From IMG/VR virus record IMGVR_UViG_2548876954_000011: 37,865 nucleotides of DNA; one strand, 5' to 3'. Under the pieces are notes generated by a model. That model was not told the origin of the DNA. It made no database searches and saw only the letters and a list, made by a program, of their open reading frames with translations. The translations under genes and the position numbers were made by a program. The DNA comes from a virus. Its lineage: Duplodnaviria > Heunggongvirae > Uroviricota > Caudoviricetes. Of the stretch, positions 1 through 35,010 are shown piece after piece. The first letter of the stretch is position 1; each line of letters opens with the position of its first letter.

Positions 1-1032
1 TCAAAAACTTGCTATTGATGTTGGTAGTGTTGCCAGCGGATTAAACCGTAATGCAGTTTCCAGATGATCTGGTGCCAGATGTGCGTAACGCATAGTCATT
101 TTTATATCGTGGTGTCCGAGAATTTTTTGTAAGGCGAGAATGTTTCCACCCGACATCATGAAGTGCGCCGCAAACGTATGGCGCAGAACGTGTGTGAGTT
201 GACCGCGAGGGAGCACGATAGACGTTTTTTCCATCACGGATAAAAATCGAAAATAGCAGTCTGTGAAGAAATTGAACCCATCAAGCGCCATGATCTCTTC
301 GTAAAGCTCTTTACTGATAGGGATGCTTCTGTTTTTCTTCCCCTTCGTTCTTACAAAGGTAATTCGGTATTTGGTCACCTGTGAGCGGGTAAGATTTACG
401 GCTTCACGCCAGCGTGCGCCTGTGCTTAAGCATATCTTAACTACCAGTGCCAGAATTGGGTCCTGACGTTTGCAATCAGCCAGTAATTCAACAATCTGCT
501 CATGGGTAAGCCATGCCATCTCTTTTTCTGCGATGGTGAATTTTCGCATGTTCTCCAGTGGGTTCGGATACGACCATTCGCCCAGGCGGGATAGTTCGCT
601 AAAAACACTACTTAGATAGCTTTGCTCCAGGTTAATGGTGACCGGGCTTGCTCCTTTCTTCCATTTCTCGCTGAAGTAGATCTCTCCTGTCAGGCGTTTA
701 TCTCGATAGTGGGCAAACATTTTAGATGTGAGATCGGTTGCAAGGGGATTGCCCAGAGCGTCAACCATCAACAGCAGTTTGTCATAGACATGCTGGCCAG
801 CTGTCAGAGATTTACCATGTAGTTTGAACCATAGTTCAACCACGTCTTTCAGTGTTCGACGATCCACTGATTCGCCCAGCCAGGGCTTTGCTTCGGTTTC
901 TTCCATCGTGTGACGCTCAAAAGCCAGAGCTTCGCCTTTGGTGGCGAATTGTTTACGCACACGACGTCCGCTACGTCCGGCGGGGTAACATTCGCAAAGC
1001 CATTTTCCTGTGGTGAGTTTTCGTACTGCCAT
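1..1032 (-). CDS. int: Tyrosine site-specific integrase (P2/186 Int family)
   Basis: 343 aa; C-terminal catalytic region ...HVLRHTFAAHFMMSGGNILALQKILGHHDIKMTMRYAHL (R-H-R-Y type); stop codon is window positions 1-3; position next to the repressor as in 186. Confidence 0.9.
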   Translation of the reverse strand: MAVRKLTTGKWLCECYPAGRSGRRVRKQFATKGEALAFERHTMEETEAKPWLGESVDRRTLKDVVELWFKLHGKSLTAGQHVYDKLLLMVDALGNPLATDLTSKMFAHYRDKRLTGEIYFSEKWKKGASPVTINLEQSYLSSVFSELSRLGEWSYPNPLENMRKFTIAEKEMAWLTHEQIVELLADCKRQDPILALVVKICLSTGARWREAVNLTRSQVTKYRITFVRTKGKKNRSIPISKELYEEIMALDGFNFFTDCYFRFLSVMEKTSIVLPRGQLTHVLRHTFAAHFMMSGGNILALQKILGHHDIKMTMRYAHLAPDHLETALRFNPLATLPTSIASF

Positions 1033-1113: not shown

Positions 1114-2091
1114 TCACTTTTGGGTAACAATGTCATCATTTGCTGCTGATTTTTTATCTGCAAGTGTGCCTAGAATGTTAAATAAATTTGGAGGTGGCTG
1201 CGTTTTATCTGCGAATGCAGAATTAGCTGACATGTTCCAATCTTTAAACACATCAATAGCATCTTGTTTTGTCGCAGTTGAACCATAAATTTGTAAGAAG
1301 ACCTCACCAAACATTAGAGCGTGTTGTCTGTCTTTTCTTATGATTGCTTCATGTGTGTATTTTTTTGAATTGTTTAAACAAAAATAAGAAAGCCAAGAAA
1401 GTAATGCAACCCCAAGTAAGCCCCTAGTGAAATAATAAAAAAGTTCAATGGGGGTGGCGTCTTTTATATCTATTTTATAGAAAAATGTTAAAAAGGCGGC
1501 ACTTATAGATAATAATGATAAAAGTATTCCGGCTATCGCCCAATTGTAAGACATTGCAGTGAAATCCTTATCGTCCTGATGTAATTTTGCTTTGACACCC
1601 TGCACATATTCAGGAACTTTTTCGTCAATTTTATTTTGTTGAATTTTGCTTGAAAGTTTTTGGTTTTGAAGCTTTAACTCTTTGTTTTGGGCGTGTTGGA
1701 GTTTTAGCTGTGATGCTAGTTTTTCTTTACTGTCCATTGCAGTTAATAACTCTATCTGCAACTTGTTGAATTGGTCTAACTGCGAATTATGGCTTTTTTG
1801 AAACTCGCGTAGTTTATGTTCTAACTCATCAATTTTTAAAAGGTACTTATCTGCTTCACTGTTTTGCAATGATGTATGGTCAGGCATGAAGGACTCATAC
1901 ATATATTTTTTTTTAGAAAAATTTCGACTGTAAGCATCAAGCAGTATATCGAATTCATCAAACTCTAGAGAATCCAATAGGTTTTTCAAAGTATTATAGG
2001 TGTCATTAGATAAATGTGATTTTAATTCTCCTAATTTAATACTTCTAGACGTATATTTTTCACTATTACTTTTATAATCAGAACCACTCAT
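1114..2091 (-). CDS. Hypothetical coiled-coil protein with two predicted transmembrane helices; cargo gene inserted between repressor and integrase
   Basis: 325 aa ORF; Lys/Glu/Gln-rich heptad-like N-terminal half (…LQIELLTAMDSKEKLASQLKLQHAQNKELKLQNQKL…), hydrophobic segments AIAGILLSLLSISAAFLTFFY and GLLGVALLSWLSYFCL; visibly AT-rich compared with the phage backbone; same strand as repressor and int. Confidence 0.6.
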   Translation of the reverse strand: MSGSDYKSNSEKYTSRSIKLGELKSHLSNDTYNTLKNLLDSLEFDEFDILLDAYSRNFSKKKYMYESFMPDHTSLQNSEADKYLLKIDELEHKLREFQKSHNSQLDQFNKLQIELLTAMDSKEKLASQLKLQHAQNKELKLQNQKLSSKIQQNKIDEKVPEYVQGVKAKLHQDDKDFTAMSYNWAIAGILLSLLSISAAFLTFFYKIDIKDATPIELFYYFTRGLLGVALLSWLSYFCLNNSKKYTHEAIIRKDRQHALMFGEVFLQIYGSTATKQDAIDVFKDWNMSANSAFADKTQPPPNLFNILGTLADKKSAANDDIVTQK

Positions 2092-2103
2092 TCCAATATC
2101 CTT

Positions 2104-3048
2104 TTATAATTCTTCTATCAGAATAAAATTGCATTTTGCAATAACATCAATATCTGAAATTTTACATTCAAATGATAAATCATTGTCTGAAATTTTTAAT
2201 CTTCCTACAGGAATTCTAGTTAGGGTTCGAATGCTCACTTTCCCTTCTATTTCAACAATCCATTTACCATCTGTAATTTCATCGAATGATTGATTACATA
2301 GGTATGTTTTTTTTTCGGTGCTAACAATCAATGGTAATTGGATTGAGTCTGGTAGTAATGCTTTATCAAGCATATAGAAATTTGAATCAAATAGATTCCC
2401 GTCAGTAATTTTTTTGTGAGTAATAGCAATTACATCATTTCTTGCATCGTCAAACTTTGGGCCTTTACCAGTAGTTAGCCACATTAGTGAAGTACCCGTT
2501 TCGAGAGCGCACTTAATTATCCAGTCTGAAGGAAAAACATCACGCATATATCTTGTGGCTAATGTGCTTTTTGAAATACCTAAGTGATCAGCTAAGGCTT
2601 GGCGAGTCTTATAACCGTAAGCCCTAACAATTCGCTCTATTGCTTCCTTGCCACCCCGAGAATAATCAATGGTGTTTTCATTATCGAACTTTGGTTGTTT
2701 ATAGTGAACGTCATGATAAGAACCATCTTCGGAGTGTGTTTCAACATGCTGTTCTGGTGAAGGGGATGGCATTTGTTCGTCATCATCTGAACCAAATGCT
2801 AGCCATTTAATTGATGCTCCAGTTTCCATTGAGCAGATAACAACCCAATCTGCAGGAAATGTATCGCGGGCATATCTGTTAGCCATCGTGCTTTGGGAAA
2901 TACCTAGATGGTTACAGAATGCTTGGCGTGACTTGAAGCCATAAGCCATGAGTATCCGCTCGATTACTTTCTGACCACCGCGATTTTGTATGACAACGGC
3001 TTTCATATCGTCATCAATATGGCGAAATGTGAATTTTTGAGTTGACAT
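2104..3048 (-). CDS. CI-type immunity repressor candidate with two tandem CI-like HTH domains plus a C-terminal domain
   Basis: 314 aa; residues ~24-86 (GGQKVIERILMAYGFKSRQAFCNHLGISQSTMANRYARDTFPADWVVICSMETGASIKWLAFG) and ~132-194 (GGKEAIERIVRAYGYKTRQALADHLGISKSTLATRYMRDVFPSDWIIKCALETGTSLMWLTTG) are about 60% identical to each other and look like the phage CI-repressor N-terminal domain; divergent from the Apl/Cox-like gene, i.e. in the cI position of 186. Confidence 0.65.
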   Translation of the reverse strand: MSTQKFTFRHIDDDMKAVVIQNRGGQKVIERILMAYGFKSRQAFCNHLGISQSTMANRYARDTFPADWVVICSMETGASIKWLAFGSDDDEQMPSPSPEQHVETHSEDGSYHDVHYKQPKFDNENTIDYSRGGKEAIERIVRAYGYKTRQALADHLGISKSTLATRYMRDVFPSDWIIKCALETGTSLMWLTTGKGPKFDDARNDVIAITHKKITDGNLFDSNFYMLDKALLPDSIQLPLIVSTEKKTYLCNQSFDEITDGKWIVEIEGKVSIRTLTRIPVGRLKISDNDLSFECKISDIDVIAKCNFILIEEL

Positions 3049-5489: not shown

Positions 5490-5788
5490 CAAGGGCTGTG
5501 CGTATCCATCAATTAAAAATTGCACCTAAGTATTTCAACGCTGTGGTTGCAGGTCAAAAGACGGCTGAACTTCGTAAAGACGATCGTGGCTATAAAGTTG
5601 GTGATGTTCTTTCTCTTTGCGAATGGAAGCATGGCGTATTTACGGGTAGGGAATGGGCCGCTGTTATCTCTCATGTGCTTCCGGTTAATGACGTCATGGC
5701 AGTTTCAGAACAATGGGTGATGCTATCAATTCGCCCATTAACCCCATTAGAAGCTTTAGGATATGTTATTGCAGGAGGTGCTGTATGA
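5486..5788 (+). CDS. ASCH/DUF3850-like small protein
   Basis: ATG at 5486 preceded by GGAGG; 100 aa ([42 protein letters not shown]…); family recalled from memory. Confidence 0.5.
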
Positions 5789-6642
5789 GTACCATCCTGA
5801 AATGGGCGGGTAATAAAACTGCCATTATGTCCGAACTGAAAAAACATCTTCCTGCTGGCCCGCGACTGGTTGAACCTTTCGCGGGTTCCTGTGCTGTGAT
5901 GATGGAGACGGATTACCCCAGCTATCTTGTTGCGGATATTAATCCTGATTTAATCAACCTCTATAAAAAGGTTGCTGCTGATTGCGAGGCGTTTATATCT
6001 CGTGCCAGAGCTTTATTTGAGGAAGCAAACAGGGAGTTGGCTTATTACAACATAAGGCAGGAGTTTAATTACTCCACTGAAATTACTGATTTCATGAAAG
6101 CGGTATATTTCCTGTATCTCAATCGTCATGGTTACCGTGGGTTATGTCGTTATAACAAGAGCGGGCATTTCAACATTCCATACGGTAATTATAAAAATCC
6201 GTATTTCCCTGAAAAAGAAATTCGCGCATTTGCAGAGAAAGCCCAGCGAGCAACGTTTATCTGCGCCAGCTTTGATGAAACGCTGGCGATGCTGCAGGTG
6301 GGGGATGTGGTGTATTGCGATCCGCCTTATGACGGTACGTTTTCCGGCTATCACACTGACGGCTTCACTGAAGATGACCAGTATCACCTGGCATCTGTTC
6401 TTGAATATCGATCATCAGAAGGTCATCCAGTCATTGTTTCTAACAGTGACACATCCCTGATCCGTTCGCTGTATCGAAATTTCACTCACCACTACATCAA
6501 GGCAAAACGCAGCATCGGCGTGTCGGCTGGCGAGAGTAAATCTGCAACAGAAATCATCGCTGTTTCCGGGCCGCGCTGCTGGGTGGGATTTGATCCTTCG
6601 CGTGGCGTGGATAGTTCTGCCGTGTACGGAGTGCGTGCATGA
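5785..6642 (+). CDS. dam: DNA N6-adenine methyltransferase (Dam family)
   Basis: [23 protein letters not shown]…EPFAGSCAV (AdoMet motif) and [11 protein letters not shown] (DPPY catalytic motif); about 285 aa. Confidence 0.85.
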
Positions 6643-9053
6643 GCCATGCTGATATGAACAACTGCAGCGGCTTTAACGAGGCCGCCGCAGCATTCTCATG
6701 GAACAGCCCGAAAAAGGCTATTAACCCTTATCTGGACCCGGCGGAAGTTGCGCCGGTTTCTGCGCTTTCAAACCTGATCACTCTGTACGCTGCCGATAAC
6801 GAGCAGGAACAACTGCGCCGCGAGGCACTGAGTGATCAGGTCTGGGAGCGTTATTTCTTTAATGAATCCCGTGATCCTGTCCAGCGCGAAATGGAGCAGG
6901 ATAAGCTCATTAGCCGGGCAAAGTTGGCGCATGAGCAGCAGCGTTTTAACCCGGACATGGTCATTCTGGCAGACGTTAACGCCCAGCCTTCCCATATCAG
7001 CAGGCCGCTGATGCAACGTATTGAATACTTCAGCAGCCTTGGCAGGCCAAAGGCTTATTCCCGCTATTTGCGTGAGACGATTAAGCCATGTCTGGAACGG
7101 CTGGAGCATGTACGCGACAGTCAGCTATCCACTTCTTTTCGCTTTATGGCAAGCCATGAAGGGCTGGACGGCCTGCTGATTCTGCCTGAAATGAGTCAGG
7201 ATCAGGTGAAACGCCTGTCCACCCTTGTTGCTGCGCATATGAGCATGTGCCTTGATGCAGCTTGTGGCGATTTGTATGCCACCGATGACGTTAAGCCAGA
7301 AGAAATCCGCAAGACATGGGAAAAGGTGGCAGCAGAAACCCTGCGACTGGATGTCATACCGCCTGCGTTTGAGCAACTCCGCCGGAAAAGAAACCGCCGT
7401 AAACCCGTGCCCTATGAACTCATTCCGGGTTCGCTGGCGCGTATGTTGTGCGCCGACTGGTGGTACCGGAAATTATGGAAGATGCGTTGCGAATGGCGGG
7501 AAGAGCAGTTGCGTGCTGTTTGCCTGGTCAGCAAAAAAGCATCTCCCTATGTCAGCTATGAAGCCGTGATGCATAAACGTGAGCAGCGCCGTAAGTCGCT
7601 GGAGTTTTTCCGTTCTCATGAACTGGTGAACGAAGACGGCGACACGCTGGACATGGAGGATGTGGTAAACGCCAGCAGCAGCAACCCTGCGCATCGCCGC
7701 AATGAGATGATGGCCTGTGTTAAAGGTCTGGAGCTTATCGCGGAAATGCGCGGTGACTGCGCCGTTTTCTACACCATCACCTGTCCGTCACGTTTCCATT
7801 CCACGCTAAATAACGGCAGGCCCAACCCGACCTGGACAAATACGACGGTAAGACAAAGCAGTGATTATCTGGTCGGCATGTTTGCTGCATTTCGTAAGGC
7901 GATGCACAAAGCCGGATTGCGCTGGTATGGCGTGCGGGTGGCTGAGCCGCATCATGACGGTACAGTTCACTGGCACCTGTTGTGTTTTATGCGCAAAAAA
8001 GATCGCCGCACCATTACTGCTTTGTTGCGTAAGTTTGCCATTCGTGAAGACCGCGAGGAGCTGGGTAATAACACAGGACCACGCTTTAAGTCTGAGCTGA
8101 TAAACCCGCGCAAAGGTACGCCAACAAGCTACATCGCGAAATACATCAGTAAGAACATTGACGGGCGTGGTCTGGCTGGCGAGATCAGCAAGGAAACGGG
8201 TAAATCCCTGCGTGATAACGCTGAATACGTTAATGCCTGGGCGTCTCTTCATCGTGTTCAGCAATTCCGCTTCTTTGGCATTCCGGGGCGTCAGGCTTAC
8301 CGTGAACTGCGATTGCTGGCTGGTCAGGCGGCAAGGCAACAGGGGGACAAAAAAGCAGGTGCGGCGGTACTGGATAACCCACGCCTTGATGCCATCCTGG
8401 CTGCTGCTGATGCTGGTTGTTTTGCCACCTACATCATGAAGCAGGGCGGCGTACTGGTTCCCCGCAAATATCACCTCATCAGAACCGCTTATGAAATCAA
8501 CGAAGAGCCGACCGCCTATGGCGATCACGGCATTCGTATTTATGGCATCTGGTCACCCATTGCAGAGGGCAAGATCTGCACTCATGCAGTGAAGTGGAAA
8601 ATGGTTCGTAAGGCCGTTGACGTTCAGGAGGCGGCAGCCGACCAGGGCGCTTGCGCCCCTTGGACTCGTGGCAATAACTGTCCCCTTGCTGAAAATTTGA
8701 ACCAACAGGAGAAAGATAAATCAGCTGATGGGGACACCAGAACGGATATTACCCGCATGGATGACAGGGAGTTGCACGATTACCTGCACAGTATGAACAA
8801 AAAAGAGCGCCGGGAACTGGCTGCAAGGTTACGTCTGGTGAAACCGAAACGGCGTAGAGACTACAAACAGCGAATTACAGACCATCAACGACAGCAGCTC
8901 GTCTATGAACTGAAGTCCAGAGGATTTGATGGCAGCGAGAAAGAGGTCGATTTACTCCTTCGCGGCGGCAGTATTCCATCAGGAGCAGGCTTGCGTATCT
9001 TCTATCGGAACCAGCGTCTGAAGGAAGATGATAAGTGGCGGAACCTGTATTAA
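6639..9053 (+). CDS. A: Replication initiation endonuclease (P2 gpA-like rolling-circle initiator)
   Basis: 804 aa; HUH-type motif [10 protein letters not shown] (around 7963-7992) and active-site tyrosine region YIAKYISK (around 8131-8154); position after dam in the early operon. Confidence 0.9.
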
Positions 9054-9147
9054 TTACGCGGGTTAACAATTCGTGCTCTTAATAATACCAGGAATATCAG
9101 GCCGATGAACGTAAAAAAACGTTTTACATCAGTAAGATTATTATATA

Positions 9148-9163
9148 CTGTAAATATAAACAG
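9148..9163. promoter_or_regulatory. LexA box (SOS operator) overlapping a promoter for the downstream Tum/DinI-like genes
   Basis: CTGTAAATATAAACAG fits the CTGT-N8-ACAG LexA consensus exactly; TTTACA (9123-9128) and TATACT (9144-9149) give possible -35/-10 elements; sits 43 bp upstream of the ATG at 9206. Confidence 0.6.
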
Positions 9164-9205
9164 TGGTTATGTATACAGTATTGCTTTGGTGTCATAGGAG
9201 GAAAG

Positions 9206-9394
9206 ATGCAGGACTATTTTTTGGAGTCTTTGAAGCTCCAGCGCATTGATTTTTTTCTTAAGCTTGTAGCGGCTAGTGAGTGTAGTGATGAAGAGAAGGG
9301 GCTGGCTCTGCAGTGGGTTTCTGAATTAACTGATGAACTCATGGCAAAAATCAGAACCCATGAATACAACCGCTCAATGGATGTCATCAGTTGA
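9206..9394 (+). CDS. Hypothetical small protein, first gene of the SOS-controlled module
   Basis: 62 aa; AGGAGG at 9196-9201 just upstream of the ATG. Confidence 0.5.
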   Translation: MQDYFLESLKLQRIDFFLKLVAASECSDEEKGLALQWVSELTDELMAKIRTHEYNRSMDVIS

Positions 9395-9405
9395 GGTGAC
9401 TTTTT

Positions 9406-9639
9406 ATGCGCATTGAAATAATGATCGATAAAGAGCAGAAGATTAGCCAGTCTACCCTGGACGCCCTTGAATACGAGCTTTACCGCAATCTGCGCCCCCT
9501 ATATCCAAAAACGGTAATTCGCATCCGCAAAGGTAGCTCTAACGGTGTGGAACTGACCGGACTGCAACTGGACGAAGAAAGGAAGCAAGTGATGAAAATT
9601 ATGCAGAAAGTGTGGGAAGACGACAGCTGGCTGCATTAA
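9406..9639 (+). CDS. DinI-family protein (186 Tum-like antirepressor candidate)
   Basis: 77 aa, MRIEIMIDKEQKISQSTLDALEYELYRNLRPLYPKTVIRIRKG…WEDDSWLH, resembling DinI (MRIEVTI…); sits downstream of a LexA box, as tum does in 186. Confidence 0.7.
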   Translation: MRIEIMIDKEQKISQSTLDALEYELYRNLRPLYPKTVIRIRKGSSNGVELTGLQLDEERKQVMKIMQKVWEDDSWLH

Positions 9640-9772
9640 GAAACGTTGCTGGCGTCTGAACTTGCTTCTGGCGTCAGCAAGGTTGAACAACGAGCTGTGC
9701 GAGGCGTTAGCTCTGTGGTGCATGTCTATACCGCATAAGATCGCATGATTGTTTGAGGATCGTTTTTGCTCA

Positions 9773-9798
9773 GGCCCGCCAGAACTGGCGGGCTTTTG
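9773..9798 (+). terminator. Rho-independent terminator (possibly bidirectional)
   Basis: Perfect 9-bp GC-rich stem GCCCGCCAG / CTGGCGGGC with a 2-nt loop, followed by TTTT; an A/T run also lies on the other side. Confidence 0.5.
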
Positions 9799-9842
9799 CG
9801 TAGATCATGCAGGTGCATGAAAACCACTACATAAAGCGGGCA

Positions 9843-9861
9843 GGCGTGGCGGGGATACGAG
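9843..9861. other. Putative cos (cohesive end) site
   Basis: GGCGTGGCGGGGATACGAG resembles my recollection of the 186/P2 19-nt cohesive ends (GGCGTGGCGGGGAAAGCAT / GGCGAGGCGGGGAAAGCAC), 13 of the first 13 nt matching 186; recalled, not verified. Confidence 0.3.
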
Positions 9862-9889
9862 CGCGCGCTGAAAAGGTTTAGCTAAATTT

Positions 9890-9919
9890 TTGTCGATAGG
9901 TAGTTTTAGTTGTTATACA
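9890..9919 (+). promoter_or_regulatory. Putative sigma70 promoter for the ATPase/protease cassette
   Basis: TTGTCG, 17-nt spacer, then TTATAC/TATACA, inside a very AT-rich T-tract region upstream of the ATG at 10053. Confidence 0.3.
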
Positions 9920-10052
9920 AAAGTGTCACTGGTTTTGTTTTGAGCATTTGTGGTGCTAAAAATATTTTTTTTGGTTCAAAATTACCTTAAAAAGGTTTTT
10001 TTGGTGTATGATTGTTTGAAAAGTGGTTCAGTTTTGCCATAAGGGTGGTTAG

Positions 10053-11135
10053 ATGATAAACGTTACAAACGAAATGCTCATTGATGTTGTCAGTGATGCT
10101 CTTACCGGGAAGAGGGAAAGTCTCCTCATGCGGTTGCGGATTATGGCAAAAAAACTAAAAAAAGAATCTCCTGAATTAGCGGGTAAATTAGAAGATTTAC
10201 TTATTAATACAGGTGGCGCAATTGCAGTCGAAAGGGCTAATCCAGTTGTTCCTAAAATAACACCTGTTGATGCGGATACAAGACAAAAGCTGCTAGTTGA
10301 AACATATCCTGTGGTCATTGATGTTGAACCTGTTTGGCCAACAAAAACTGATGTTCAACTGAATCGATTTGTGGCTGAGTGGGAAATGAAAGAACGCCTT
10401 TATAAAGAAGGGTTGCATCCGTCCAAATCTCTTCTTATGGGAGGACCACCCGGTGTGGGGAAGACTTTGGCTGCAAAGTGGCTCGCTTTTAAACTCGATA
10501 TGCCATTGTTAACATTAGATCTCGCAAGTGTAATGAGTAGCTACTTGGGGAAAACGGGTAATAATATTAAGGCAGTCCTCAATTATGCTTCGTCATTCCC
10601 TTGTGTACTGCTTCTTGACGAATTTGATGCGATTGCTAAAAAAAGGGATGATGCAACAGATGTTGGAGAACTAAAAAGATTAGTTACAGTATTATTGCAA
10701 GCAATTGATGAATGGCCAAATACGTCTGTTCTTATAGCAGCAACTAACCATGCGGAGCTGCTTGATCCTGCTGCATGGAGAAGATTCGATCGAGTTATTG
10801 ATTTTGAATATCCAACACAAGACCTAATGAGAAGATATCTCTGTTCTAAAAATATTGGAGATAGCTTATCGTACTATATTGCTACAAAACTCGAAAAAGT
10901 TTCATATGCAGTTCTTGAGAGAGCTATAAATCAAGCTAAAAGAAATGCCATTATAGAAGATATTCCTTTAAGTTCAGCTTTAATTGATGAGTTGTTAGAT
11001 GGCGTGTCACTTGATGATGTTATAAAAAACATGTCAAACAACAATGTATCACAAAGAAAAATCGCTTTAGATTTGGGGATTTCAAGGTCACAAGTACGTA
11101 AGGTTTTGACGGTTGAGGATGAAGACAATGAATGA
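10053..11135 (+). CDS. AAA+ ATPase (IetA-like), first gene of the cargo cassette
   Basis: 360 aa; Walker A GGPPGVGKT (around 10440-10466), Walker B LLLDEFD (around 10610-10630); C-terminal HTH-like segment SQRKIALDLGISRSQVRKVL; AT-rich; stop overlaps the protease start (ATGAATGA). Confidence 0.85.
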   Translation: MINVTNEMLIDVVSDALTGKRESLLMRLRIMAKKLKKESPELAGKLEDLLINTGGAIAVERANPVVPKITPVDADTRQKLLVETYPVVIDVEPVWPTKTDVQLNRFVAEWEMKERLYKEGLHPSKSLLMGGPPGVGKTLAAKWLAFKLDMPLLTLDLASVMSSYLGKTGNNIKAVLNYASSFPCVLLLDEFDAIAKKRDDATDVGELKRLVTVLLQAIDEWPNTSVLIAATNHAELLDPAAWRRFDRVIDFEYPTQDLMRRYLCSKNIGDSLSYYIATKLEKVSYAVLERAINQAKRNAIIEDIPLSSALIDELLDGVSLDDVIKNMSNNNVSQRKIALDLGISRSQVRKVLTVEDEDNE

Positions 11136-13320
11136 TAAAAATATGCTTCTTGGCTATGGTGAAACACTAACTAACCCTGTTAAACTTAACAGAGGTGGAG
11201 GTGAAAAGAATAAACCTTACTCTTATTCAGAAAATAAACCAGTGATATCTGCTCAACTGGAAGAGTTGATTGAGGAAATTAATACCCTTCCATTGTTAGC
11301 AATGCCTGAAGGTAAGGCTGTAGCAAAATTTGTTTTGCATCCGGCATTCTTAGCAAAAAGTTATTTTCCAGTAAGTCTTTTTGAGCGATTTTCCCTAGAA
11401 AGCATAGGCAGTAAGGCTGTAAAAGTAAAACCTAGAAAAGATATTAAAAAAAGAGGGCGAAAAGAGGAATACACTACAGCGTGTATTTATGTTTCTGGCA
11501 AAAAAGAAAGTTTTCAATCATTCTTAGACTCTGTAAATCAAGATACCCTAACGAAAGGGCAGCAAAATGATTTTGTCACCTTAGAAAATATTTCAATACT
11601 GGAAGTTTCAGATAAAGTAAAAACGATTAATAGCAATGAAGTTATGAGTATTGAGGTCGCCTTACATACTCCTGATACAAGTTCCTCTATTGTCGATAGT
11701 TTTGAAGTTTTTGCTTCGCAAAATGGTGCTGTTATAGATAAGGCAAGAAGTATAAAGGTTAAGGGGCTAACCTTTATGCCTATTAAGGCTAGTAAAGATG
11801 TAGCTTTAAAAGTTGCAGAGTTTTCATTTCTCAGGACTTTGAGAGAACTTCCTGAATTAAGGCTAAGTGAGCCTGTTATATCACGTTCTGTGATTCAAAC
11901 ATCTAACCTTAGTTTACCATCTGAAGGAGCGGTAAACCCACATATAAAGGTTGCCATATTCGATGGTGGATTGGGGATCGATGATTTCAATCCTTGGGTA
12001 ACAGAGTACACTTTCAACGGTAATGCTAGTACTAATGCAAAACTTCTTTCTCATGGACAAGATGTCACCTCTACTGTGTTATTTGGTGTTCTTGGCTCTG
12101 AAACGGAAAAATTAAGTGTTCCTTATTGTAATATTGACCATTATCGTGTACTGGATTCCAATGTTAATAACTCAGATGTCGATCTTTTTGACGTTCTGAT
12201 CCGTATTAAAAGTGTATTAGAACAAAAAAAATATGATTATATCAATCTGAGCTTAGGACCTAGATTACCTGTTGATGACGATGACGTGCATGTGTGGACC
12301 TCAACTCTTGAGGAGATACTTGCATCAGGAGAAACACTTTGTACTGTCGCGGTTGGAAATGATGGTCAGCTGCCTGCCAAGTTAAATCGAATTCAACCAC
12401 CTGCTGATTTAGTTAATGGTCTGTCAGTAGGTGCAGCAACCTCTTTATCTGATAGTTGGGAAAGATGTTCTTACAGTTGTATTGGTCCTGGACGAAGCCC
12501 TGGCTTTGTGAAGCCTGATGGAGTTGCATTTGGAGGACATTCTGATGAGCCATTCCAGGTATACAGCCCTATGGTTAATGGTCTTGCCCGCACTGCGGGG
12601 ACTAGCTTTTCAGCTCCATTAGTCCTGAGGCAAGCAATCGCGTTAAGTGCTTCTCTAAATTACAACATTACACCACTTACGGCTAAAGCTCTGCTTATAC
12701 ATCATGCGGAGAGCAATAATATCAATCGTGCTGAAGTTGGTTGGGGACGATTTCCTCATGATCTTAGTGAAGTAATATTTTGTGATGATGATGAAGTTAA
12801 AGTTATATATCAAGGTACTTTAAAACCATCACAACACATGCGAGCACCTATTCCGTTTCCAGATGTACCTATGCGTGGATGTGTAAATTTAAGAGCGACA
12901 TTCTGCTTTTCCAGTCCTGTAGATGCGGAACATCCTTTGAATTATACAAGAAGCGGTCTAGAAGTAACCATGAGAAAAGGTGTTTCAGATAGTTCCGGGT
13001 TAACGTTTCCTCTTTTTAATCTAAAAAATGTTTATGCAGATGAAAATGAGCAACGTGTTGATGCACATAAATGGGAGACTACGTTAAGAAGTGAACACAA
13101 ATTTAAACCGAATGAGCTGACAAACCCATGCTTTGATATTATCTACTATGGTAGAGACTGTGGTATGCCTATTGATGTTGACGAGTTAGAAGAACTACCA
13201 TATGTTCTTGTCGTGACTTTATCTGCTGAAGAAATGCCGGATTTATATAACCTAATTAGGCAGAAATATCAAACCTTACAGCCTATACAAGTTCAACAGC
13301 AAATTATGTTACGTACTTAA
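11128..13320 (+). CDS. Subtilisin-like serine protease (peptidase S8 family, IetS-like), probably cytoplasmic
   Basis: 730 aa from the ATG at 11128 (GAGGA about 9 nt upstream; in-frame alternatives at 11113 and 11119); S8 catalytic motifs in the right order: D in VAIFDGGLG (codon 11962-11964), H in LSHGQDV (12052-12054), oxyanion N in AVGNDGQ, S in AGTSFSAP (12604-12606); no N-terminal signal peptide evident. Confidence 0.85.
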   Translation: MNDKNMLLGYGETLTNPVKLNRGGGEKNKPYSYSENKPVISAQLEELIEEINTLPLLAMPEGKAVAKFVLHPAFLAKSYFPVSLFERFSLESIGSKAVKVKPRKDIKKRGRKEEYTTACIYVSGKKESFQSFLDSVNQDTLTKGQQNDFVTLENISILEVSDKVKTINSNEVMSIEVALHTPDTSSSIVDSFEVFASQNGAVIDKARSIKVKGLTFMPIKASKDVALKVAEFSFLRTLRELPELRLSEPVISRSVIQTSNLSLPSEGAVNPHIKVAIFDGGLGIDDFNPWVTEYTFNGNASTNAKLLSHGQDVTSTVLFGVLGSETEKLSVPYCNIDHYRVLDSNVNNSDVDLFDVLIRIKSVLEQKKYDYINLSLGPRLPVDDDDVHVWTSTLEEILASGETLCTVAVGNDGQLPAKLNRIQPPADLVNGLSVGAATSLSDSWERCSYSCIGPGRSPGFVKPDGVAFGGHSDEPFQVYSPMVNGLARTAGTSFSAPLVLRQAIALSASLNYNITPLTAKALLIHHAESNNINRAEVGWGRFPHDLSEVIFCDDDEVKVIYQGTLKPSQHMRAPIPFPDVPMRGCVNLRATFCFSSPVDAEHPLNYTRSGLEVTMRKGVSDSSGLTFPLFNLKNVYADENEQRVDAHKWETTLRSEHKFKPNELTNPCFDIIYYGRDCGMPIDVDELEELPYVLVVTLSAEEMPDLYNLIRQKYQTLQPIQVQQQIMLRT

Positions 13321-13326
13321 CAATGT

Positions 13327-13350
13327 GGAGGGGTTCCCCCTCCTTTATTA
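13327..13350 (+). terminator. Rho-independent terminator after the protease gene
   Basis: GGAGGGG-TTC-CCCCTCC hairpin (7-bp GC stem) followed by TTTATTAA; occupies most of the 38-bp gap before the convergent portal gene. Confidence 0.55.
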
Positions 13351-13358
13351 AGATTTAT

Positions 13359-14408
13359 CTATGTTGATTGTGGGTCATCGTTTATTAAGTTATATTTTTC
13401 AAAATGGATAATATTAATTCCTAACCATTCATTAAATTCCTGTAATCGTTTTTGTAAAGGCATTAATTCATTTCGAACAAACACTCGACTCGCCTTCTCC
13501 ACATCCCCAAACCCCCCAACATTATTCGGCATAATCCCCATCATTTGCGGCGGCACACGATGCGCTGCCATCATGTCATCGCGGCTGACATTTTTGATAT
13601 TCAGAAACTCATCCTTCGCCGCGACTTCTGACAACGGGATGATCTGAAGCCCGTCCTTTTTGCCGTTAGGCGAGTACATAAACAGGTTGCGGAAGTTGCC
13701 AGGGCCTTTGGCGCTTTTCATCGCATTGCGGAGGTTGTTCACATCCTCCTGGTTCTGCGCGGCATCGGTCATGTACATGATGAAGCCTGCATGACTGCCG
13801 TTAATGTAATACTTGCGGCGGAACAGCGTGGCGGACTCGTTGAGCAGGGCTGATGGAATGGCAGAAAGATAACCTGGCAGGCCGTAGATCTCCTGGTTGA
13901 TGTCCGGTTCCATCAGATGAAAAATGCTGCCTTTCGTGAACTGATACGGCTGGGTTGTCATACCGTATTGCACAAACCAGTAGGTATCCAAGTCTAACCC
14001 GCGTCGGGTGTATTTTGCCAGAGCAGGCTCAAGGGCGATAACTTCACCGAAGCGGTTCGTGCGTTTCTCCAGGTAGGCGTTACCAAATACCAGATAGTCC
14101 TGCACAAAACGTGAAAAAGCCTGCTGGCTGAGCAGCGGGTGAGGGATGTAGGTACTGGTCAGAATGTTGCATTTCACCGCAATTGGTGAACTGTGATGCA
14201 CGGCGGCGCGGAAGGTGCGCGCCAGTCCGTCAAAGCTTACTGGCGGCTCATACCAGCGATCTGTCTGTACGCATTCCACATAGTCCAGCAGTTCGCGGCG
14301 GTCCAGAACAGGAACGGGATCGCCGAAGCTGAATGCCTCTGCTGAAGTCTGGCTTTTATGCTGGGTCTGGTTCTGCGACGCAGCGCGGTTCTTCTTACTC
14401 TTTCCCAT
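13359..14408 (-). CDS. Q: Portal protein (P2 gpQ-like)
   Basis: About 349 aa; first gene of the leftward late operon, overlapping the terminase stop (TGATG); length and position match P2 Q. Confidence 0.85.
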   Translation of the reverse strand: MGKSKKNRAASQNQTQHKSQTSAEAFSFGDPVPVLDRRELLDYVECVQTDRWYEPPVSFDGLARTFRAAVHHSSPIAVKCNILTSTYIPHPLLSQQAFSRFVQDYLVFGNAYLEKRTNRFGEVIALEPALAKYTRRGLDLDTYWFVQYGMTTQPYQFTKGSIFHLMEPDINQEIYGLPGYLSAIPSALLNESATLFRRKYYINGSHAGFIMYMTDAAQNQEDVNNLRNAMKSAKGPGNFRNLFMYSPNGKKDGLQIIPLSEVAAKDEFLNIKNVSRDDMMAAHRVPPQMMGIMPNNVGGFGDVEKASRVFVRNELMPLQKRLQEFNEWLGINIIHFEKYNLINDDPQST

Positions 14409-16174
14409 CAAAAAATCTCCACAATATTGCTGGTATTGGCGGACTCGCCCTGCAGCGGTTCGTTAAACAGTGCGTGCATTGTTGCCCAGGCCAGATCGGC
14501 ATGGCTGGCTTCTTCGCTGCGGCTGGCTTCATAGGTCGGGCGGTTGCCGCTGGCGGTGGTGGCGCGACGGATTGCCATAAATGACTGCGCTATGTCGGTG
14601 TGTCCGGCGTCAAACTCCAGACGACGGTGACTGATAATGTCGTAGGCTTTGAGTACCAGGGCGTTTTTAACGTTGGGGTTGTAGACAAACTCCCGGACGG
14701 CAGGAAAGAACGCTTTCACGTTCTCGTAAACCCCGTGACCAACACCTGTCGAGTCGATGCCGATGTATGTCACGTTGTACTGTTCGGTCAGTTTTTTGAT
14801 GGCGTCAGCCTGGGCGCGGAAGTCCATCCCGCGCCACTGGTGACGCTCAAGAATGCGGAACTTACCGCCCGGCACGGCTGGCGGTGCCACCACCACGCAC
14901 CCGGCGCTGTCGCCGTTTTGCGTACCTTTTGCCGGGTCATAACCGATCCATACTTCGCGCCAGCCAAACGGGCGCAGGGCCAGTGCATGAAAGTCGGTCC
15001 AGACTTCCCAGCTGTCCACCATGCACGCCTGCAGCTCGCTGAGCGGGAACACGGACGCGAGATCGTCCACGAACTCGCACATCAGCAGGTTCTGGTATTC
15101 GTCCGGGCTGTACTCCATGCGCAACTGGTCAAGGTCGAACAGGTTACAGCCGCCGCGCACCGCATCTTCCACGGTGACTATCTGGCGGTATTGCCCGTCT
15201 GCGCACAGCAGGCCGGGGGCCAGATTGCTATGGGACAGGTCGATGTCCACCTTGTCGGCTTTGTTGCGTCCACGGTTGAACAGCGCACCGGACCAGAACG
15301 GATAAGCACTGTGGGTCAGGCTGGATGGCGTGGAAAAATAGGTTTGTCGCCATTTTTTGTGAATAGCCATACCGGAAGCCACTTTGCGCAGCTCCTGGAA
15401 TTTCGGTATCCAGAAATATTCATCCAGATACAGGTTGCCGTGGTAACTCTGGGCCGTGCGGGCATTGGTGCCGAGGAAGTAAAGCGTGGCCCCGTTGGGA
15501 AGCACCATCGGATCGCCTTTCAGCTCCACCTCCACTTCTTTGGCGAAGTCGATGATGTACTGTTTAAAGACGTGGGCCTGTGCCTTACTGGCGGAAAGGA
15601 AAATCTGGTTACGTCCGGTTAGCAGGGCGTCAATCAGGGCTTCACGGGCAAAATAGAAGGTCGCGCCGATCTGGCGTGACTTCAGCAGGTTGCGGATGCG
15701 GTTGGTTTTTCCGGCTTCCCACCAGTGGCGCTGGTAGTTGAACATGGAGGAATGGAAGATTTCTTCCAGCTTCTCAATCTGCTCATCGGTGAAGACATTT
15801 TTTTCCGGCTGACGGCGCGGGCCTTTGTTGCGGTTGGCGACGTTAGGGTTTAAGTCAGCTTCGTTGCCGCCATTGTTAAACTTGCCGATCCGCGCGTGGC
15901 GCTCAGACTGGCGCGCCAGCAGGTCAATCTCTTTGAAATCTTTCCCTTCTTTGTGCTCCTTCATAATGAGCTGGCAGTAGCGTGCGGCGGTGGTGAGCTG
16001 CATCTGATCCAGCGGCCCATAGTCACCCCACTTGTCGCGTTTTTTCCAGCTGTGAACGGTTGCAACTTTCTCGCCCAGCATTTCAGCAATGCGGGCGACG
16101 CGGTATCCCTGAAAGTACAGCAGCATGGCCTGCCGACGGGGATCGAGATCTGCGGGTGTCAGTGTGGTGTTCAT
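14408..16174 (-). CDS. P: Terminase large (ATPase) subunit (P2 gpP-like)
   Basis: 588 aa (P2 P is about 590 aa); N-terminal HTH-like region, ATPase and nuclease regions; divergent from the O gene. Confidence 0.9.
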   Translation of the reverse strand: MNTTLTPADLDPRRQAMLLYFQGYRVARIAEMLGEKVATVHSWKKRDKWGDYGPLDQMQLTTAARYCQLIMKEHKEGKDFKEIDLLARQSERHARIGKFNNGGNEADLNPNVANRNKGPRRQPEKNVFTDEQIEKLEEIFHSSMFNYQRHWWEAGKTNRIRNLLKSRQIGATFYFAREALIDALLTGRNQIFLSASKAQAHVFKQYIIDFAKEVEVELKGDPMVLPNGATLYFLGTNARTAQSYHGNLYLDEYFWIPKFQELRKVASGMAIHKKWRQTYFSTPSSLTHSAYPFWSGALFNRGRNKADKVDIDLSHSNLAPGLLCADGQYRQIVTVEDAVRGGCNLFDLDQLRMEYSPDEYQNLLMCEFVDDLASVFPLSELQACMVDSWEVWTDFHALALRPFGWREVWIGYDPAKGTQNGDSAGCVVVAPPAVPGGKFRILERHQWRGMDFRAQADAIKKLTEQYNVTYIGIDSTGVGHGVYENVKAFFPAVREFVYNPNVKNALVLKAYDIISHRRLEFDAGHTDIAQSFMAIRRATTASGNRPTYEASRSEEASHADLAWATMHALFNEPLQGESANTSNIVEIF

Positions 16175-18228: not shown

Positions 18229-18879
18229 ATGAGCCTGAGTCCCGCACGGCAGCATCGCCTGCGCGTTCAGGCTGAACAGGCCGCCCGCGAGGGCGGCAGT
18301 GTTCGCCACGCATCGGGCTATGACCTGATGCTGCTGCAACTGGCGGAAGACCGCCGCCGTCTCAAGGGCGTTCAGTCCACGGTCAAAAAAGCGGAAATCA
18401 AGGTGGAGCTGCTGCCGAAATATGCCGCCTGGGCGGAGGGAGTCCTGGCTGCCGGAGGCGCTCAACAGGATGACGTGCTGATGTACGTGATGCTGTGGCG
18501 CATTGATGCCGGAGATTATGCCGGGGCGCTGGAGATCGGGCGTCATGCCCTGCGTCATGGCTGGGTGATGCCGCTGGGTAACCGCAATGTGCAGACCGTG
18601 CTGGCAGAGGAAATGGCAGACGCGGCACAGAGCGCAATGCTTGCCACTACCGGGTTTGATGCCGATCTGTTGCTGCAGACGCTGGAGCTGACAGACGGTC
18701 TGGATATGCCGGACCAGTCACGGGCGCGTCTGCATAAAGCGATTGGCGCAGTCCTGAGTGAAAGCAATCCGGCTTCCGCCCTTAATCATCTCAACCAGGC
18801 GTTACAGCTCGATCCCCGCTGTGGCGTGAAAAAAGACAAACAGCAGCTGGAGCGCAGACTGCGCAATGACAGCCGCTGA
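18229..18879 (+). CDS. M: Terminase small (endonuclease) subunit (P2 gpM-like)
   Basis: 216 aa following N; synteny with P2 M. Confidence 0.8.
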   Translation: MSLSPARQHRLRVQAEQAAREGGSVRHASGYDLMLLQLAEDRRRLKGVQSTVKKAEIKVELLPKYAAWAEGVLAAGGAQQDDVLMYVMLWRIDAGDYAGALEIGRHALRHGWVMPLGNRNVQTVLAEEMADAAQSAMLATTGFDADLLLQTLELTDGLDMPDQSRARLHKAIGAVLSESNPASALNHLNQALQLDPRCGVKKDKQQLERRLRNDSR

Positions 18880-33122: not shown

Positions 33123-33604
33123 TGATGGTGCTGGGATTGTACGTGTTTATGCTGCGCACCGTGCCGTATCAGGAGCTGCAGTATCAACGCAGCTGGCGAC
33201 ATGCGGCAAACAGCCGGGTAAACCGACGTCCGTCCACGCAGTTTCTGGGACCGGACAACGACATGCTGACGCTTTCCGGTGTTCTTATGCCGGAGATAAC
33301 AGGTGGCAGGCTGTCGTTGCTGGCACTGGAGCAGATGGCAGAACAGGGGAAAGCATGGCCCCTGATTGAAGGCAGTGGCACGATTTATGGCATGTATGTG
33401 ATTGAGGGACTGAATCAGACTAAAACGGAGTTTTTCCGCGACGGTATGCCGCGCCGGATTGAGTTCACCCTGTCGCTCAAACGGGTGGATGAATCCCTGT
33501 CCGATATATTCGGTGATCTCAGTGCGCAACTGAATAATCTGCAGGACACAGCAACGTCTGCCTTAAGCGATATCAGTAAAACGGTGGGAGGGCTGCTGTC
33601 ATGA
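33119..33604 (+). CDS. U: Tail protein U (P2 gpU-like)
   Basis: 161 aa (P2 U is about 159 aa); overlaps the T stop. Confidence 0.85.
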   Translation: MMMVLGLYVFMLRTVPYQELQYQRSWRHAANSRVNRRPSTQFLGPDNDMLTLSGVLMPEITGGRLSLLALEQMAEQGKAWPLIEGSGTIYGMYVIEGLNQTKTEFFRDGMPRRIEFTLSLKRVDESLSDIFGDLSAQLNNLQDTATSALSDISKTVGGLLS

Positions 33605-34701
33605 ATTTCAGCTCTGAACTGCTTAACAAAGGCAACAAAACTCCCGCATTCAGCATCAGTATTGAGGGCAGGGATATCACCACTGTGCTGGATAACCGCC
33701 TGATGAGTTTGACGCTGACGGACAATCGGGGCTTTGAAGCGGACCAGCTTGATCTGGAGCTGGACGACGCCGACGGAAAAATCGTGCTGCCGCGCCGTGG
33801 TGCGGTTATTACGCTGGCGCTGGGCTGGAAGGGGCAGCCGCTTTTCCCGAAAGGGGCATTCACGGTGGACGAGATTGAACACACTGGCGCACCGGACCGC
33901 CTGACTATCCGGGCGCGAAGTGCTGATTTTCGTGAAACGCTGAATACCCGCCGTGAAAAGTCGTGGCACAAGACCACCGTCGGGGAAGTGGTGAAGGAAA
34001 TAGCTGTGCGGCACAAACTGAAGATGGCATTGGGTAAAGACCTGTCAGATAAACCCGTGGAACATATAGACCAGACCAATGAGAGTGACGGCAGTTTTCT
34101 GATGCGGCTGGCGCGCCAGTACGGTGCTATTGCGTCGGTGAAAAATGGCAATCTGTTATTCATCCGGCAGGGACAGGGTAAAAGCGCCAGCGGTAAACCA
34201 CTACCGGTTATCACTATCACACGTAAGGACGGCGACAGTCACCGCTTTACCCTGGCAGATCGCGGAGCCTACACGGGCGTAATTGCCAGCTGGTTGCATA
34301 CCCGCGAACCCGCGAAGAATGAAAGCACCACGGTGAAGCGTAAGCGCAGGACTAAGAAGCAGAAGAAAGAGCCGGAAGCGAAGCAGGGCGATTACCTGGT
34401 GGGTACAGATGAAAACGTGCTGGTACTTAATCGCACCTATGCCAACCGGAGCAACGCCGAACGGGCGGCGAAAATGCAGTGGGAACGCCTGCAACGCGGC
34501 GTTGCGTCATTCTCGCTACAACTGGCAGAAGGTCGGGCAGATCTCTACACGGAAATGCCAGTGAAAGTCAGTGGCTTTAAACAGCCGATAGATGATGCGG
34601 AATGGACCATTACGACTCTGACGCATACCGTCAGCCCCGATAACGGTTTTACAACCAGTCTGGAGCTTGAAGTGAGGATTGATGATTTCGAAATGGAATG
34701 A
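33601..34701 (+). CDS. D: Tail protein D (P2 gpD-like)
   Basis: 366 aa; last structural gene before ogr. Confidence 0.85.
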   Translation: MNFSSELLNKGNKTPAFSISIEGRDITTVLDNRLMSLTLTDNRGFEADQLDLELDDADGKIVLPRRGAVITLALGWKGQPLFPKGAFTVDEIEHTGAPDRLTIRARSADFRETLNTRREKSWHKTTVGEVVKEIAVRHKLKMALGKDLSDKPVEHIDQTNESDGSFLMRLARQYGAIASVKNGNLLFIRQGQGKSASGKPLPVITITRKDGDSHRFTLADRGAYTGVIASWLHTREPAKNESTTVKRKRRTKKQKKEPEAKQGDYLVGTDENVLVLNRTYANRSNAERAAKMQWERLQRGVASFSLQLAEGRADLYTEMPVKVSGFKQPIDDAEWTITTLTHTVSPDNGFTTSLELEVRIDDFEME

Positions 34702-34791
34702 TTCTTCGCAATGGAGAACTTTTAAGTTTGCAAAATGGAATAATGCGGTATCATTATTGTGAATTTAGCAAAAATGGGGAGAACTCGAAAA

Positions 34792-35010
34792 ATGATGATT
34801 TGCCCACTGTGTGGAAGTGCCGCCCATACTCGCAGCAGTTTTCAGGTATCTTCATTGACCAAAGAGCGTTACAACCAGTGCCAGAACATTAACTGCAGCC
34901 ATACTTTTGTTACCCATGAAACTTTTGTTCGTTCGATTGCAACGCCAAAAGAGTCAAATCCGGTTCAGCCGCATCCAATGAAATCAGGACAGGTGGCGCT
35001 CTCTCTTTGA
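34792..35010 (+). CDS. ogr: Late gene transcriptional activator, zinc-finger (P2 Ogr / 186 B-like)
   Basis: 72 aa from the ATG at 34792; CPLCGSAAH…CQNINCSH zinc-binding motif, resembling P2 Ogr (…CPLCQHAAH…CQNVNCS…). Confidence 0.8.
   Translation: MMICPLCGSAAHTRSSFQVSSLTKERYNQCQNINCSHTFVTHETFVRSIATPKESNPVQPHPMKSGQVALSL

Follow-up and report, generated by a model that had tools for sequence, protein, structure and literature searches.

This locus raises the question of on which side of a phage packaging site cargo genes are carried, and whether the side has any significance. The window, i.e., the whole stretch of 37,865 nucleotides analyzed here (IMG/VR record IMGVR_UViG_2548876954_000011), contains a GC-rich 19-mer at 9843-9861 that the first-pass annotation likened to the cohesive end of phage 186. 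If this sequence were cos, an adjacent ATPase-protease cassette would come leftmost in the packaged genome, in contrast to P2, which keeps old and tin at the other end.

Judged by its gene content, the window looks like a complete 186/Fels-2-like (P2-family) prophage, since the cognate terminase, the portal, gpA, the integrase, CI, gpD, and Ogr were all found. The genes that set the layout are as follows.

1-1032, minus strand: integrase.
2104-3048, minus strand: CI repressor, followed by Fil.
5713-6642: Dam-type methylase.
6639-9053, plus strand: replication protein gpA (Pfam Phage_GPA, 6.8e-127), marking the right-arm side of the cos-proximal region.
9406-9639, plus strand: DinI/Tum-like protein (Pfam DinI, 1.9e-22), the last gene before cos, on its right-end side.
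13359-14411, minus strand: portal protein, homolog of P2 gpQ (Pfam Phage_portal).
14408-16174, minus strand: terminase large subunit, homolog of P2 gpP (Pfam Terminase_6N, Terminase_6C, and Terminase_5), the expected cutter of cos.
Between the large and small terminase genes: scaffold and capsid genes; the tail genes follow the small terminase gene.
18229-18879, plus strand: terminase small subunit, homolog of P2 gpM (Pfam Phage_term_smal, 1.4e-40).
33601-34701: gpD.
34759-35010: Ogr, followed by a host permease gene.

The packaging, head, replication, regulatory, and integration genes that we examined are all full-length, and about 35 kb lie between the int stop codon and ogr, which is comparable to phage SEN8 (35,203 bp). 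The DinI/Tum-like gene occupies the position of tum in 186 and of the DinI gene in Fels-2 and in the prophage of E. coli HS, and its presence hints that the prophage would respond to SOS signals. Two features of the left part of the window are of separate interest. The CI repressor ORF (314 aa) contains two Phage_CI_repr helix-turn-helix stretches in addition to the CI C-terminal domain, and may reflect a duplicated N-terminal domain or an over-extended ORF call. Between the integrase and CI genes, an interval reported as another accessory position of P2-like phages, lies a 325-aa ORF (1114-2091, minus strand) without a meaningful Pfam match.

The putative packaging site itself comprises two nested elements.

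9843-9861, plus strand: predicted 19-nt cohesive-end sequence, GGCGTGGCGGGGATACGAG, identical to the mapped cos of E. coli HS and to the start of the SEN8 record.
9814-9868, plus strand: 55-bp cos core common to P2, 186, and P4 (a right-end arm of 29 bp, the 19-mer, and a left-end arm of 7 bp).

The 19-mer fits the P2-family cohesive-end form GGCG(A/T)GGCGGGG... and occurs once in the window, even with three mismatches allowed; shuffled sequences gave no matches. The resemblance to 186 noted at first is real, although it falls short of identity: 15 of 19 positions agree with the annotated 186 cohesive end GGCGTGGCGGGGAAAGCAT (NC_001317, positions 1-19), and 14 of 19 with that of P2, GGCGAGGCGGGGAAAGCAC. 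The four to five substitutions lie in the 3' part, which reads ATACGAG in the window against AAAGCAT or AAAGCAC.

As evidence for cos, the flanks carry more weight than the 19-mer alone. The cos of the P2 family reportedly has a core of 55 bp. We joined the right and left genome ends of P2, 186, and P4 and aligned the junctions; the 7 bp of the left-end part read T/C-GCGCGC in this alignment and CGCGCGC in the window. Alignment with known cos sites, the check proposed for the 19-mer, gave best ungapped matches of the 186, P2, and P4 cores at 9814-9868 and nowhere else, with 44, 42, and 43 of 55 positions identical, respectively; over 200 shuffles, the best scores averaged 28.7 and went no higher than 33-34. 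The 186 and P2 sites, which give 19-nt 5' cohesive ends, resemble that of the window in having a core of 29+19+7 bp and a homologous terminase, and in lying between the gpA region and the portal gene. By homology to the 186 annotation, the nicks are predicted at 9842/9843 on the top strand and 9861/9862 on the bottom strand, position 9843 being the predicted first base of the left end of the virion chromosome.

Evidence for a working packaging site is provided by relatives with the same 19-mer, above all by the prophage of E. coli HS. After induction of this strain, Zuend et al. (2021; PMC8008629) located the prophage packaging site by read-start analysis combined with PhageTerm; their cos is 5'-GGCGTGGCGGGGATACGAG-3' at NC_009800.1 926016-926034 (Suppl. 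Table 4; the work was not a dedicated end-sequencing study), and we confirmed that the sequence at these coordinates is the window 19-mer. Around it, the HS prophage and the window are identical at 140 of 152 positions from -126 to +26, counted from the first base of the 19-mer, and fully identical from -59 to +26; from +27 onwards they are unrelated (14/34). The gene order is the same (gpA, DinI, cos, cargo, portal). Unlike the window, the HS prophage carries a single 463-aa hypothetical protein as cargo and has an additional gene (225 aa) on the side of cos that faces gpA. Cleavage at the 19-mer was thus shown by others in the HS relative, and by analogy would occur in the window prophage.

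Other phages with the 19-mer of the window are SEN8, Fels-2, and Escherichia phage Cartapus (Felsduovirus/Elveevirus, Peduoviridae), each with different cargo between cos and the portal gene. For the plaque-forming Salmonella phage SEN8, the genome announcement gives ggcgtggcggggatacgag as cos (PMC5427200). The SEN8 record begins at the 19-mer, and two genes (128-1126 and 1183-2142), coding for an HNH endonuclease and a hypothetical protein, precede the portal gene. The corresponding cargo is STM2723.1 (565 aa) in Fels-2 and a DUF4145 protein in Cartapus, where a 'putative cos site' is annotated; the cos annotations of SEN8 and Cartapus are 'putative' ones that rest on homology. In Escherichia phage 500465-1, a TIR-domain protein is encoded between cos and the portal gene, a layout like that of the window.

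To delimit the site, we collected 80 loci encoding relatives of the window portal (60-94% identity), with one genome per species, and determined for every locus the positions of gpA, of the portal stop codon, and of the cos core. The cos survey used a regular expression that missed several of the more distant loci (for example, some from Pantoea, Rosenbergiella, and Stutzerimonas), and therefore percentages apply only to the 52 loci with both gpA and a core. A single core is present in each of these 52 loci, invariably within the interval from gpA to the portal gene; GGCGTGGCGGGGATACGAG is the commonest form of the 19-mer among the fetched loci. The following elements can be delimited in the window.

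9717-9869, plus strand: complete cos module, a conserved block from -126 to +26.
9720-9723, 9733-9736, 9743-9746, and 9815-9818, plus strand: GCAT boxes at offsets -123, -110, -100, and -28.
9774-9797, plus strand: GC-rich hairpin GCCCGCC-AGAACT-GGCGGGC followed by TTTT, read from the sequence, inside the cos module.

The boundaries of the module are sharp. With 65 distinct loci aligned on the 19-mer, the information content drops to about 0 just outside the block, at -127 and +27, and the DNA on both sides of the module is variable. In BLAST comparisons, matches to phages and to 1277 of 5426 complete E. coli genomes end at 9868-9872; at the other edge, the more distant relatives begin to match at about 9718-9720 and others earlier. 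The window, HS, P2, 186, and P4 share the offsets of the four GCAT boxes (-123/-122, -110, -100, and -28), although the lineages differ in the DNA that separates the boxes; across the window, GCAT has a background frequency of 0.65 per 150 bp. This positional conservation makes the boxes candidate terminase recognition elements. The hairpin is conserved at -70 to -46 across the 65 loci and is a probable terminator of the transcript from the gpA/DinI side; the terminator scan missed it because of its short T run. If the boxes are indeed recognition elements, the site would be strongly asymmetric, with nearly all recognition on the right-end side and 7 bp constrained on the left-end side.

Immediately beyond the module begins the cargo.

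9870-10052, plus strand: AT-rich leader of the cassette, beginning where the lineage-wide homology ends.
10053-11135, plus strand: IetA, AAA+ ATPase, 360 aa (PADLOC IetA PDLC02196, E 6.7e-84, residues 7-355; Pfam AAA, 5.4e-30).
11113-13320, plus strand: IetS, S8 (subtilase) serine protease, 735 aa (PADLOC IetS PDLC02197, E 1.8e-48; Pfam Peptidase_S8, 2.9e-17).
13327-13343, plus strand: terminator hairpin GGAGGGG-TTC-CCCCTCC followed by TTTATT, found by the terminator scan and filling the 38-bp gap before the portal stop codon.

An IetAS system consists of an adjacent AAA+ ATPase and S8 protease, and both window proteins are near full-length matches to the PADLOC models; by these matches the cargo (10053-13320) is an IetA/IetS pair, a predicted defense system. 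The ietS gene overlaps ietA by 23 bp, and the cassette is transcribed away from cos, convergently with the portal gene. Its promoter is presumed to lie within the leader, an assignment made from position, since the promoter scan gave no sigma-70 consensus hit at 9870-10052. The exact IetAS cassette is found in 11 of 5426 complete E. coli genomes, in every case in the slot between cos and the portal gene. One of these 11 genomes carries an IS4-like IS421 insertion at the locus (NZ_CM176496.1 3022554-3027683, hit H101). A pair of ORFs of 360 and 730 aa occupies a 3499-bp cos-portal slot in Silvania confinis, which compares with 3497 bp in the window; judged by the ORF sizes, it is probably an IetAS cassette in another genus.

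Taken together, these observations make it highly probable (about 0.93) that 9843-9861 is the true cohesive-end sequence of a functional cos of a 186/Fels-2-like prophage, and the doubt that remains concerns whether the prophage is still active. By analogy with other cos phages, the terminase (gpM, with gpP) would recognize elements almost wholly on the right-end side, namely the four GCAT boxes, the hairpin, and the 29-bp core arm, and would introduce the staggered nicks given above, producing 19-nt 5' cohesive ends. The asymmetry of the site would suggest, on the model of lambda cosB, an enzyme that stays on the right-end arm. Beyond the 19-mer, the site would constrain no more than about 7 bp (CGCGCGC), which leaves the stretch between +27 and the portal stop codon open to cargo. 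In the window, this slot holds the IetA/IetS operon with its own leader and terminator, and the cassette would lie about 210 bp from the left physical end of the DNA in the virion.

The most serious competing explanation is that the prophage is defective and has ceased to package DNA; the site would then be a relic of intact appearance, and a 'left end' would be physically meaningless here. A sequence does not prove inducibility, the exact cassette is as infrequent as 11 in 5426 genomes, and the IS421 insertion in one of them demonstrates that such prophages do decay. Nevertheless, we regard a relic as quite improbable: the cos module differs at only 12 of 152 positions from that of the inducible HS prophage and at none from -59 to +26, all examined genes from packaging to integration are full-length, and the int-ogr span is similar to SEN8 in length. 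Far less probable still is a true cos elsewhere, for instance in the 38-bp gap at 13321-13358 beside the portal gene, with 9843-9861 as a duplicated or decoy copy. The idea draws on the proximity of cos to the portal gene in P2 and 186, where only about 170-190 bp separate cos from the portal stop codon. However, the gap contains only the GC-rich terminator hairpin with its T tract and has no similarity to the cos core, which excludes it as a packaging site; the 19-mer, even when up to three mismatches are allowed, has no other match in the window, nor has the 55-bp core; and the relatives with both markers uniformly have one core, located in the gpA-portal interval. A merely accidental likeness of a GC-rich 19-mer to the 186 end, suggested by agreement at only 15 of 19 positions, is equally negligible and is rejected by the shuffle test (44/55 for the 186 core against at most 33), by the conserved box geometry and genomic position, and by identity to the mapped HS cos.

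With the site accepted as a probable cos, the position of the cargo can be considered. The cassette separates cos from the portal gene and would hence occupy the left end of the virion DNA, as the first-pass annotation proposed. In the window, 3497 bp separate cos from the portal stop codon, while the interval from gpA to cos (9053-9842) is minimal, 789 bp with only a 62-aa ORF and the DinI gene. Such a layout predominates in the lineage: 38 of the 52 loci have 1 kb or more between cos and the portal stop codon, six have 300-1000 bp, and only eight have less than 300 bp. The gpA-to-cos interval reaches at least 2 kb in 17 of the 52 relatives and hence represents a second variable slot. In 37 of the 38 loci with a long portal-side slot (at least 1 kb), the longest slot ORF reads away from cos towards the portal gene, and transcription across cos appears to be avoided. 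PADLOC defense families match eight of nine slot proteins sampled from the relatives, the families being a type II methyltransferase, bSEFIR, PDC-M01A/PtuA-like, PDC-S49, Old-like, AbiLi, and PDC-S59, together with a weaker match to a pAgo model. The Old-like protein, a 638-aa ATPase/Toprim protein (PADLOC Old, 2.7e-31) from Enterobacteriaceae bacterium RIT714, is encoded on the portal side of cos, opposite to the side of P2 old.

A different arrangement is found in P2 proper. There, old and tin lie on the right-end side of cos, the old-tin transcript starts about 150 bp from cos and reads away from it, and the portal gene lies within 187 bp of the left end. The contrast with P2 drawn at the outset extends to its lineage: cos and Q are 156-170 bp apart in 77 of 79 IMG/VR loci (L092-L171), a redundant sample with portals about 99% identical to P2 Q. 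The other two loci, rare exceptions, have 1.4-1.9 kb between cos and Q. The window departs from this arrangement, in which cargo separates gpA from cos and no more than about 200 bp separate cos from the portal gene. Phage 186 also differs from the window in having its accessory genes tum and orf97 on the right-end side of cos, whereas the window cargo is on the left-end side. The satellite P4 is closer in this respect. On the left-end side, its similarity to P2 stops right after CGCGCG(C), and gop and the neighboring accessory genes begin at this point, the junction also seen in the window. P4 has a defense hotspot next to its cos (Rousset et al. 2022); unlike the window prophage, it has no portal or terminase of its own.

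These data can be compared with published descriptions of the region. Rousset et al. (2022) described a defense hotspot 'adjacent to the cos site', between gpA and gpQ of P2-like phages, and a 2026 survey used the same gpA-gpQ definition; neither of the two papers states which side of cos holds the cargo. The survey also reported that P2 and P4 almost never exchange defense genes. The position between cosL and Q was described earlier as a place that picks up foreign genes, according to PMC5694545, which cites Dodd and Egan (1996) and Nakayama (1999); examples of genes acquired there (morons) are ctx of phiCTX and a case in phiRSY1. The window cassette fits the gpA-gpQ hotspot, as it lies in a variable, defense-rich region adjoining cos, and is a typical example of a defense slot on the left-end side. 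The side used by the hotspot depends on the lineage: P2 proper uses the gpA side, Fels-2/HS-like phages mostly use the portal side, and some phages carry cargo on both.

Thus, the geography proposed for this locus stands, i.e., the cos, the left-end cargo, and the contrast with P2, while the significance attached to it does not. The layout is not special: long portal-side slots prevail in the lineage, the same arrangement is seen in the packaging HS prophage and the plaque-forming SEN8, and the hotspot was proposed in the 1990s. The finding is in this sense already known, as the exact 19-mer has been in print twice as cos and the cosL-to-Q hotspot was proposed earlier. What is new are the boundaries of the module at -126 and +26, the geometry of the GCAT boxes, and the statistics for the lineage; no new mechanism is added.

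The idea that the order of DNA entry into a new host matters for a defense function is speculation, and nothing in the analysis favors it. Entry of the cassette ahead of or behind the rest of the genome would depend on packaging polarity. The right end of P2 is probably tail-proximal, although none of our conclusions relies on this. The hotspot may have changed sides of cos between lineages. If DNA entry is polar, cassettes of the Fels-2/HS lineage, in which the left-end hotspot begins exactly 7 bp past the cut, as in P4, would enter at the opposite time from old and tin, which are at the right end in P2. A special role of the position is doubtful for several reasons. Cargo is found on both sides of cos across the relatives; prophage defense acts from the integrated state, in which the position of cos is irrelevant; and the sharp boundaries are simply explained by the requirements of packaging and of the portal gene. 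The papers citing Chattoraj and Inman (1974) do not give the tail-bound end of P2, and a recent single-molecule study questions strict last-in-first-out ejection, even for lambda. We consider it unlikely that the left-end placement and the near-universal transcription away from cos were selected for function, be it the timing of expression during infection or the sparing of cos from transcription. An alternative is that the placement merely reflects where non-essential DNA is tolerated.

For annotation, the analysis fixes the predicted virion ends, with the left end at 9843, and identifies IetAS as cargo that would be packaged at the extreme left end. For the lineage, it provides a boundary rule, by which exchangeable cargo occupies all the DNA between position +27 past the cut and the portal stop codon. 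For the P2 family, the side of cos on which the gpA-gpQ hotspot lies, left open by the hotspot papers, is resolved as lineage-dependent.
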